Assembly (NCBI RefSeq): GCF_041248615.1 | Contig: NZ_CP158426.1 | Origin: Escherichia coli | GTDB lineage: Bacteria > Pseudomonadota > Gammaproteobacteria > Enterobacterales > Enterobacteriaceae | Direction: 5' to 3' (one strand) | Length of the DNA stretch: 64,000 nt | In this document: one piece after another, positions 33,219-33,510 of the stretch | Layout: each line of letters begins with the position of its first letter | Numbering within the stretch: position 1 is the stretch's first letter | Translations under genes and position numbers: made by a program | Notes under the pieces: model-generated | What the model was told of the DNA's origin: nothing | Seen by the model: only the letters and a program-made list of their open reading frames with translations | Databases searched by the model: none

Positions 33219-33247
33219 TTGACAAAGCCGCCGTTATGTAGTATTGT
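33219..33247 (+). promoter_or_regulatory. Sigma70-like promoter upstream of the small ORF
   Basis: TTGACA (33219-33224), 17-bp spacer, TATTGT. Confidence 0.4.
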
Positions 33248-33363
33248 AAGTAGGGAGGGGAGAAACATCTCTCTCCATCTAAATAATCAAATCACAGAAC
33301 ACTGCACTTTGAGCCGTCAGGCTGCAAGGTGTGTTTTTCTTTTATCTAAATAAGGAGTTTTTT

Positions 33364-33510
33364 ATGAAATGGTATACACCGGAACACGTCGTAGAGGCAT
33401 TTAAAAAAGGTGAGCTAACACGACATCAAGTAAGGATGAACAGGAACACAGCGCGGCGCTGTGGTTATCCAGAGCGTGAAAAATGCTTTGACGATGCACT
33501 AAAAAGGTAA
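33364..33510 (+). CDS. Small ORF (48 aa as present), probably a 5' gene fragment truncated by IS1
   Basis: AGGAG RBS 6 nt before ATG at 33364; MKWYTPEHVVEAFKKGELTRHQVRMNRNTARRCGYPEREKCFDDALKR; the TAA stop at 33508-33510 lies inside the IS1 terminal repeat. Confidence 0.35.
   Translation: MKWYTPEHVVEAFKKGELTRHQVRMNRNTARRCGYPEREKCFDDALKR

Follow-up and report, generated by a model that had tools for sequence, protein, structure and literature searches.

Probable remnant of the first early-operon gene of a glyU-integrated phage-like element, cut by an IS1-associated deletion in Escherichia coli

IS1 is known to promote adjacent (nested) deletions, which were classically described in the gal region. 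A simple IS1 insertion is flanked by an 8-9-bp target-site duplication, and the genes insA and insB' are joined by a programmed -1 frameshift. Satellite elements are recognised by their hallmarks, which are AlpA and Pri-Rep with TerS/Ppi for PICI, terminase, portal, protease and capsid for cfPICI, and the alpha primase, Sid, Psu and Delta for P4. Promoter-proximal terminators gate phage operons, as in the case of lambda PR'-tR'/6S RNA with Q and of leader termination from PLE in the satellite P4. As for the chromosomal region considered here, the ETT2 type III secretion cluster lies beside glyU and occurs in many deletion isoforms, according to a review (PMC11068852).

The window, that is the whole stretch of 64,000 nucleotides that was analysed, is identical to E. 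coli NRZ14408 (NZ_LT599825.1). Judging from sequence comparison, a small ORF in this window derives from a genuine and conserved gene of 60 codons, the first one in the early operon of a phage-like island at glyU, and is now an ordinary mobile-element scar. The explanation that we favour, with a probability of about 0.8, is that a 47-codon remnant of the first gene of this operon was left when an IS1-associated deletion cut it, and that the remnant is a dead end. With respect to the classical IS1 deletions, the likeness consists in a constant IS1|yqeI junction with five sequences at the other end, in the retention of IS1 and in the absence of a target-site duplication; the differences are that the events took place in natural isolates and are deduced by comparison, and that at least one step looks like recombination between two IS1 copies (the CTCATACTG signature). 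Similarly to known cases of ETT2 attrition, only yqeG, yqeH and a yqeI fragment are left of ETT2 in NRZ14408, whereas the IS1-bounded deletion extends into a separate phage-like element located between glyU and ETT2, most of which is gone.

The tRNA-Gly(CCC) gene glyU lies at 28659-28732 (+ strand; ARAGORN and Rfam), and its last 22 bp (TCGATTCCCTTCGCCCGCTCCA, 28711-28732, +) form the attL core, the same repeat being found at the opposite border of the intact copy carried by strain 2015C-3101. The surviving left 4.8 kb of this 13.6-kb glyU-integrated phage-like element extends from 28733 to 33505 (+) and is 99.5% identical to 2015C-3101 up to IS1. It contains genes for an 85-aa hypothetical protein (29179-29436, +), a YecR-family lipoprotein (29470-29790, -) and a serine recombinase resembling DNA invertases (30443-30994, -), all assigned through Pfam, PHROG and RefSeq annotation, and then an AT-rich, ORF-poor stretch (30995-33218, strand not assigned) with a GC content of 31-39% and no ORF longer than 65 aa. 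Promoter, leader and truncated gene complete this surviving part. The 506 bp to the left of IS1 are present in 485 of 5,426 complete E. coli genomes, in 66 of them with at least 99% identity.

The truncated small gene (33364-33510, +) starts with the ATG at 33364, not 33365, and comprises 47 native codons (33364-33504) plus two at the IS1 end, an Arg codon and the stop TAA, so that its product is MKWYTPEHVVEAFKKGELTRHQVRMNRNTARRCGYPEREKCFDDALKR (48 codons, then the stop). Codon 48 (A|GG) spans into IS1 and the TAA at 33508-33510 lies inside the IS1 inverted repeat. Since IS1 begins at 33506, the last sense codon and the stop are supplied by this repeat, as the preliminary description had claimed for the stop codon. 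The IS1 copy (IS1B type, 33506-34273, -) is exactly 768 bp long, with insA/insB on the minus strand; its ORFs of 91 aa (33943-34218, -) and 167 aa (33521-34024, -) correspond to insA and insB', and RefSeq annotates an IS1B family transposase with programmed frameshift, which is the frame arrangement of IS1. Both ends were read directly (GGTAATGACTCC... and ...GGCAGCATCACC, also given as GGTAATGACTCCAACTTATTGAT... and ...ATCAGTAAGTTGGCAGCATCACC) and form imperfect terminal inverted repeats of about 23 bp (GGTGATGCTGCCAACTTACTGAT / GGTAATGACTCCAACTTATTGAT). No target-site duplication was found around this copy, the flanks being ...CACTAAAAA and GACAAATGC...; this speaks against a simple insertion, while its identity as IS1 is unaffected.

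The other end of the same IS1 cuts yqeI, an ETT2 regulator gene, leaving a 5' fragment of 164 codons (34274-34765, -; RefSeq, Pfam Trans_reg_C and the intact yqeI of 2015C-3101). In 2015C-3101 the two flanks of IS1 are 25,715 bp apart, and this interval, in which the other ~8.8 kb of the element are joined by ETT2 from ygeQ to the middle of yqeI, is absent here, in agreement with the earlier proposal that the 3' part of the gene and its neighbours had been deleted. Among 5,426 complete E. coli genomes, the left junction was found in NZ_LT599825.1 only. The right junction, IS1|yqeI (34274), gave a single full-length match in 11 other genomes, and in the four strains that were inspected IS1 is present at yqeI in the same orientation and with other left neighbours: EscU in P276M, 462 bp of EscU with another IS1 copy in front of them in JSMCR1, EscS (with IS1 just after it) in AR_0085, and ygeQ in TUM9803. 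Over IS1 and 3.2 kb of right flank, the strains sharing the junction show 2-9 mismatches (99.75-99.95% identity), as compared to 42 mismatches (98.7%) with respect to a strain without IS1. The shared IS1|yqeI junction, together with five different left junctions and the retention of IS1, thus indicates a series of nested deletions in which one end of IS1 stayed fixed. The extent of ETT2 loss differs among the complete genomes, about a dozen, that have the shared junction.

Since the IS1|yqeI end is old and shared and the left end is unique to the strain, a further IS1-associated deletion would have occurred in NRZ14408, where one IS1 now joins codon 47 of the small gene to the interior of yqeI. 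This deletion would have taken the last 13 codons, the ~8.8 kb of the element that carry its replication genes, capsid module, integrase and attR, and the ETT2 remainder, and what remains would be a promoter and a leader driving a 48-codon fusion ORF antisense into IS1.

Full-length homologues, which had been expected to reveal what the island originally encoded, were found in 2015C-3101, 97-3250 and JSMCR1, and their context is a 13.6-kb glyU-integrated phage-like element with ETT2 beyond it. The intact protein is 60 aa long (WP_000872470.1, a hypothetical protein in RefSeq; MKWY...ALKIIDELRKAEAEKE), with 13 further codons in these three strains and ...DDALKIIDELRKAEAEKE as its C-terminal part. 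The protein database contains 44 relatives, of which the untruncated ones measure 58-64 aa. That the gene was formerly longer is borne out, because none of the relatives ends naturally at the IS1 position and intact members are overall 56-66 aa long; the loss amounts to only 13 codons. Homologues exist in several genera of Enterobacterales, with members in Klebsiella, Erwinia typographi, Franconibacter helveticus and Escherichia sp. at 32-44% identity, and Citrobacter sp. probably also holds a relative. The dN/dS ratio has a median of 0.13 (range 0.03-0.27, 25 E. coli pairs), and on these alignments the small ORF is a gene under purifying selection.

The family is narrow. A profile search against 1.84 billion cluster representatives gave only 37 matches, about 30 of which are plausible members, fragments included, the others being long repetitive proteins; none of the matches carries a Pfam domain. 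The small protein and its distant relatives matched nothing in Pfam, PHROGs and NCBIfam, the sequence profile search of the PDB gave nothing below E = 0.27, fold comparison returned generic helical matches only, and profiles and folds of known small phage regulators (Cro/CI HTH, AlpA/Xis excisionase, RHH, Hha/Cnu-like) gave no significant match. No match was obtained by tblastn against 50,697 phage records, and the four obtained against plasmids are all copies of the same element, one of them in a record of chromosome size. The AlphaFold model of the 60-aa protein (pLDDT 87) shows three helices (6-15, 20-33 and 36-59). In this model helix 3 loses its final 12 residues (47-48 to 59), including the invariant D50, through the IS1 cut. 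The 48-aa product is probably inactive. That the intact protein is a nucleic-acid-binding regulator of the early switch of the element is a guess with even odds, which we make because of the first-gene position, the size and charge of the protein, the basic character of helix 2, and the genes located downstream, which are RHH-like and of replication type.

In many members of the family the start codon is apparently not AUG, but GUG or UUG, and seemingly CUG in the Citrobacter-like and AUU in the Franconibacter copy (examples are L006, L018, L055, L079 and L080, and proteins P0048, P0055, P0056, P0059 and P0066). Gene callers stretch the N-terminus of these members upstream, up to 90-107 aa. 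Such starts suggest selection for weak translation initiation. Two contigs titled 'MAG: Bacillota bacterium' carry the E. coli-type leader and small gene, and are probably due to contamination or mis-binning.

Upstream of the small gene, the preliminary description had placed a good promoter, a 110-nt leader with a hairpin and a strong AGGAG RBS, and all of them are present. The promoter, TTGACA-N17-TATTGT, is of sigma-70 type and would belong to the early operon (33219-33247, +; -35 at 33219-33224 and -10 at 33242-33247). The quality of its match is by itself of chance-level frequency and not rare: promoter-like sites with at least 10 of 12 matching positions are 9 in the 64-kb window as compared to 11.1 expected from Markov simulations, and a separate promoter scan of the window found 3, with 3.8 expected. 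TTGACA-17-TAnnnT is present at the equivalent place in every relative that retains the upstream DNA, including those at 32-44% protein identity, and it is because of this conservation, not through the consensus score alone, that the promoter is credible. The Shine-Dalgarno sequence, AAGGAG (33352-33357, +), lies six nt before the ATG and is kept in relatives as AAGGAG, AGGAGG or GGAGGA.

The leader is about 110 nt long, from a predicted start near 33254 to 33363, and its RNA is predicted to fold better than all of 200 shuffles (z = -3.5). A 5' stem-loop is predicted at 33254-33280 (+, -11.9 kcal/mol), and in E. coli relatives G-rich and C/U-rich arms matching it are seen in a by-eye comparison. 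The description of the hairpin can be refined, in that it is a conserved terminator-like stem with a U-run. This intrinsic-terminator-like element (33304-33346, +, predicted fold) has a stem of 12 bp with one bulge and a 4-nt loop (33304-33332, GCACUUUGAGCC-GUCA-GGCUGCAAGGUGU, -16.8 kcal/mol as predicted), immediately followed by the U-run GUUUUUCUUUUAUC (33333-33346, also given as GUUUUUCUUUU), as is typical of intrinsic terminators. The hairpin ends about 30 nt upstream of the start codon and the U-run 6 nt upstream of the Shine-Dalgarno sequence. A simple terminator scanner run on the window missed the hairpin, probably because of the bulge.

The stem is retained in 14 of 14 distinct leaders with different loops (GUCA, CAA, CAAGA, CAACAA and AUUCUCU), and in 8 of the 14 the stem is longer by one A:U pair, inserted jointly on its two sides; this paired insertion is the only covariation in the 14 leaders, in which covarying base substitutions were not found. 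Since many leaders were retrieved by a pattern that contains the lower stem, the invariance of the latter is partly ascertained; the hairpin is also present in loci retrieved by protein (L006, L007 and L011-L014). In the pattern scan of viral contigs, 28 of the 57 matches were true relatives and the remainder chance. When the region is compared with the Klebsiella and Franconibacter copies, the block formed by hairpin and RBS is all that matches at the nucleotide level, and it is identical in contigs whose small protein is just 33% identical. From these alignments, the leader hairpin appears to be the most conserved DNA of the region.

No promoter fits between the U-run and the RBS, and we therefore infer that the whole operon is read through the terminator-like hairpin. 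A conserved terminator in this position suggests control of the operon by attenuation or antitermination. In intact copies, the sigma-70 promoter would drive the ~110-nt leader with its 5' stem-loop and its hairpin and U-run, followed by genes for the 60-aa three-helix basic protein, the RHH-like protein, the replication-initiator-like HTH protein and further small proteins, and the capsid/tape-measure-like module and the tyrosine integrase next to attR would complete the element. Expression would be set by attenuation or antitermination, given the required readthrough, and the small basic protein would most likely be the nucleic-acid-binding regulator of the switch. By analogy, the arrangement is similar to lambda PR'-tR' and P4 PLE, with a strong, constitutive-looking promoter, an intrinsic terminator ~50-90 nt further on and a long operon after it; in contrast to those systems, no Q-like, N-like or CI-RNA-like component was identified, and no P4-style complementary sequences are present in the element.

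Other readings of the ORF and of its truncation were considered. If the ORF existed by chance and the likeness of its promoter and RBS were coincidental, promoter-like matches as good as this one should occur in the window at chance frequency, as they do, and PGAP would annotate nothing over the truncated ORF in NRZ14408, as is the case; however, this reading is refuted by conservation (the dN/dS of 0.13, the maintenance of frame, RBS and promoter across genera, and the RefSeq annotation of the intact gene as WP_000872470.1) and we regard it as very improbable. A simple IS1 insertion with nothing else lost deserves even less credit, having in its favour nothing beyond the presence of IS1, and is refuted by the lack of a target-site duplication and by a right flank, yqeI, that is 25.7 kb away in the strain keeping the region. 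As regards the route of the deletion that we favour, the end product would be identical whether the fixed IS1 transposed intramolecularly or a second IS1 recombined with it. A two-step version of the latter, with a simple IS1 insertion in the small ORF followed by homologous recombination with the IS1 at yqeI and loss of the interval, is a possibility that we take seriously without favouring it. JSMCR1 has two IS1 copies in the same orientation in the interval, and the small ORF was independently hit by IS1 in another strain, 3 bp away. Moreover, the 9 bp CTCATACTG that end the left flank in P276M also begin the right flank of the first IS1 of JSMCR1, as expected if two IS1 copies recombined after an old simple insertion in escU, and they would be the footprint of these events. 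Against this version, no genome among 5,426 complete E. coli has a simple insertion with target-site duplication at the exact position. Evidently, both deletion routes have operated in this region.

The leader also admits a different interpretation, in which promoter, 5' stem-loop, AU-rich single-stranded stretch and terminator make up an sRNA gene of ~90 nt, the operon being expressed by leaky readthrough only; this gene would be intact in the window and possibly active. The layout is like that of enterobacterial trans-acting sRNAs, hairpin and U-run are the best conserved DNA, and the whole unit (33219-33346) lies upstream of IS1, but an Rfam scan over 27000-36000 at E <= 1 matched glyU alone and gave no family for the leader, no complementary target of at least 11 nt occurs within the element, and the U-run ending 6 nt before the Shine-Dalgarno sequence suits an attenuator equally well. 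We therefore consider a separate sRNA gene rather unlikely. P4-like RNA immunity was dropped because no complement of the leader of at least 11 nt is present elsewhere in the element. A broader proposal, speculative and in our opinion doubtful, is that the unit of promoter, leader and small gene is the control switch of an undescribed family of integrative, satellite-like elements of Enterobacterales. A constitutive promoter would yield a short terminated RNA, and the arginine-rich three-helix protein or a helper-phage factor would override the near-invariant hairpin and turn on replication and capsid genes; the RNA part (33219-33346), intact in the window, could persist as an orphan RNA of ~90 nt feeding antisense transcription into IS1.

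The 13.6-kb insertion of 2015C-3101 lies directly after glyU and is absent from P276M, which defines the insertion point. It is bordered by 22-bp direct repeats of the glyU 3' end (TCGATTCCCTTCGCCCGCTCCA), 13.5 kb apart, so that the intact copy has both a tyrosine integrase and tRNA-derived repeats at the two borders, as expected of a tRNA-integrated element, and the window keeps the attL side only. Proceeding from glyU, the genes code for an 85-aa hypothetical protein, a YecR-family lipoprotein and, on the opposite strand, a 183-aa DNA-invertase-like serine recombinase; ~2.3 kb without annotated gene are followed by the promoter, the leader and the 60-aa gene, by an unannotated RHH-like 58-aa ORF, by a gene for a 221-aa HTH_36 / replication-initiator-like protein and by six small genes. 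Then come a 123-aa protein, a capsid-E-like major capsid protein, a 613-aa tape-measure-like protein and, next to attR, the tyrosine integrase (Phage_integrase and DUF6538 domains). The ribbon-helix-helix-like ORF (MNINFDSATYNALLNRAKAEGKSIPKLVNELL..., at 4571-4747 of the 2015C-3101 locus L001) directly follows the small gene and is deleted from the window; it has no RefSeq annotation in 2015C-3101, 97-3250 and JSMCR1, but the plasmid, Klebsiella and L014 copies have an annotated small gene at the corresponding place.

Related copies, which add a Dit-like protein, are found at glyU or beside proA, and further ones on a conjugative E. coli plasmid and in Klebsiella plasmid records. The Franconibacter copy keeps recombinase, leader, small gene and integrase, is missing the capsid module and has a restriction-modification pair as cargo. 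A comparison of 2015C-3101 (L003) with L011-L014 and L080 shows a conserved backbone, in which the small serine recombinase and the ORF-poor region are accompanied by the leader with the small gene, by the replication-initiator-like gene and by the DUF6538 integrase. The cargo on the attL side varies, with a YecR-like lipoprotein in E. coli and a C5-methylase plus an Eco29kI-type restriction enzyme in Franconibacter, and the capsid / tape-measure-like / Dit-like module is optional.

With P4-like elements, PICI and capsid-forming PICI the element has in common a size of ~13-14 kb and a tyrosine integrase adjacent to an att site that stems from the 3' end of a tRNA gene. Further shared features are an early operon coding for small regulators and for a protein similar to replication initiators, the presence of some virion genes, and cargo at one end. 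In contrast to those satellites, it has an extra small serine recombinase and a capsid protein whose identity to phage capsid proteins in GenBank does not exceed ~26%. The Pfam, PHROG and NCBIfam scans of the element proteins found capsid-E-like, tape-measure-like, Dit-like and HTH_36/replication-initiator-like proteins, the integrase and the resolvase, and detected no AlpA, primase-helicase, terminase, portal, protease, Sid/Psu/Delta or cos-type markers. Given that no hallmark of P4, PICI or cfPICI was seen, the element is not placed in those families, and it appears to match no named satellite family. A literature search on the element or the junction returned only general ETT2 reviews.

The scar adds one more isoform to the attrition of ETT2 at glyU and, being a pseudogene remnant, is of little weight in itself; it clearly illustrates how a single fixed IS1 end leads to nested deletions across natural isolates. 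Of moderate interest are its by-products, namely a family of compact elements (8-14 kb) whose capsid gene differs from those of all sequenced phages, a leader terminator more strongly conserved than any protein of the element, and a protein family with just 37 cluster representatives in 1.8 billion. Together, these would constitute an uncharacterised regulatory module.

The AT-rich stretch (30995-33218), 2.2 kb long, separates the serine recombinase gene from the early promoter and contains a perfect 23-nt tandem repeat (32207-32252), a repeat of ~60 nt (31913-32026), 2-3 copies of TGAGCGTATAGCGAA (31517, 31629 and 31821) and, at 32171 (+), a second promoter-like site (TTGACA-18-TATAGT, 11/12). 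It is partly conserved in E. coli relatives, the part from 31405 to 32204 being lineage-specific, and could be an origin or iteron region or a source of non-coding RNA. A promoter switch by recombinase-driven flipping of this ORF-poor segment was discarded, the flanking inverted repeats being weak (31 nt, 71% complementary), and promoter inversion was also unsupported, all examined E. coli relatives being collinear.

A second, independent IS1 junction in the small ORF is present in a contig of Logan SRR27874573 (L015, ~940-1742), at the position equivalent to 33505-33508 of the window. It lies 3 bp further downstream in the same orientation (...CTAAAAATTA|GGTAATGAC, product ...ALKIR followed by the stop), and on the far side of this IS1 the sequence of the element starts again after a gap of ~3.7 kb. 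With its AT-rich 3' end (AAAAATTATTGATG), similar to the IS1 end CAACTTATTGATAG, the small ORF may offer a target hot spot for IS1.
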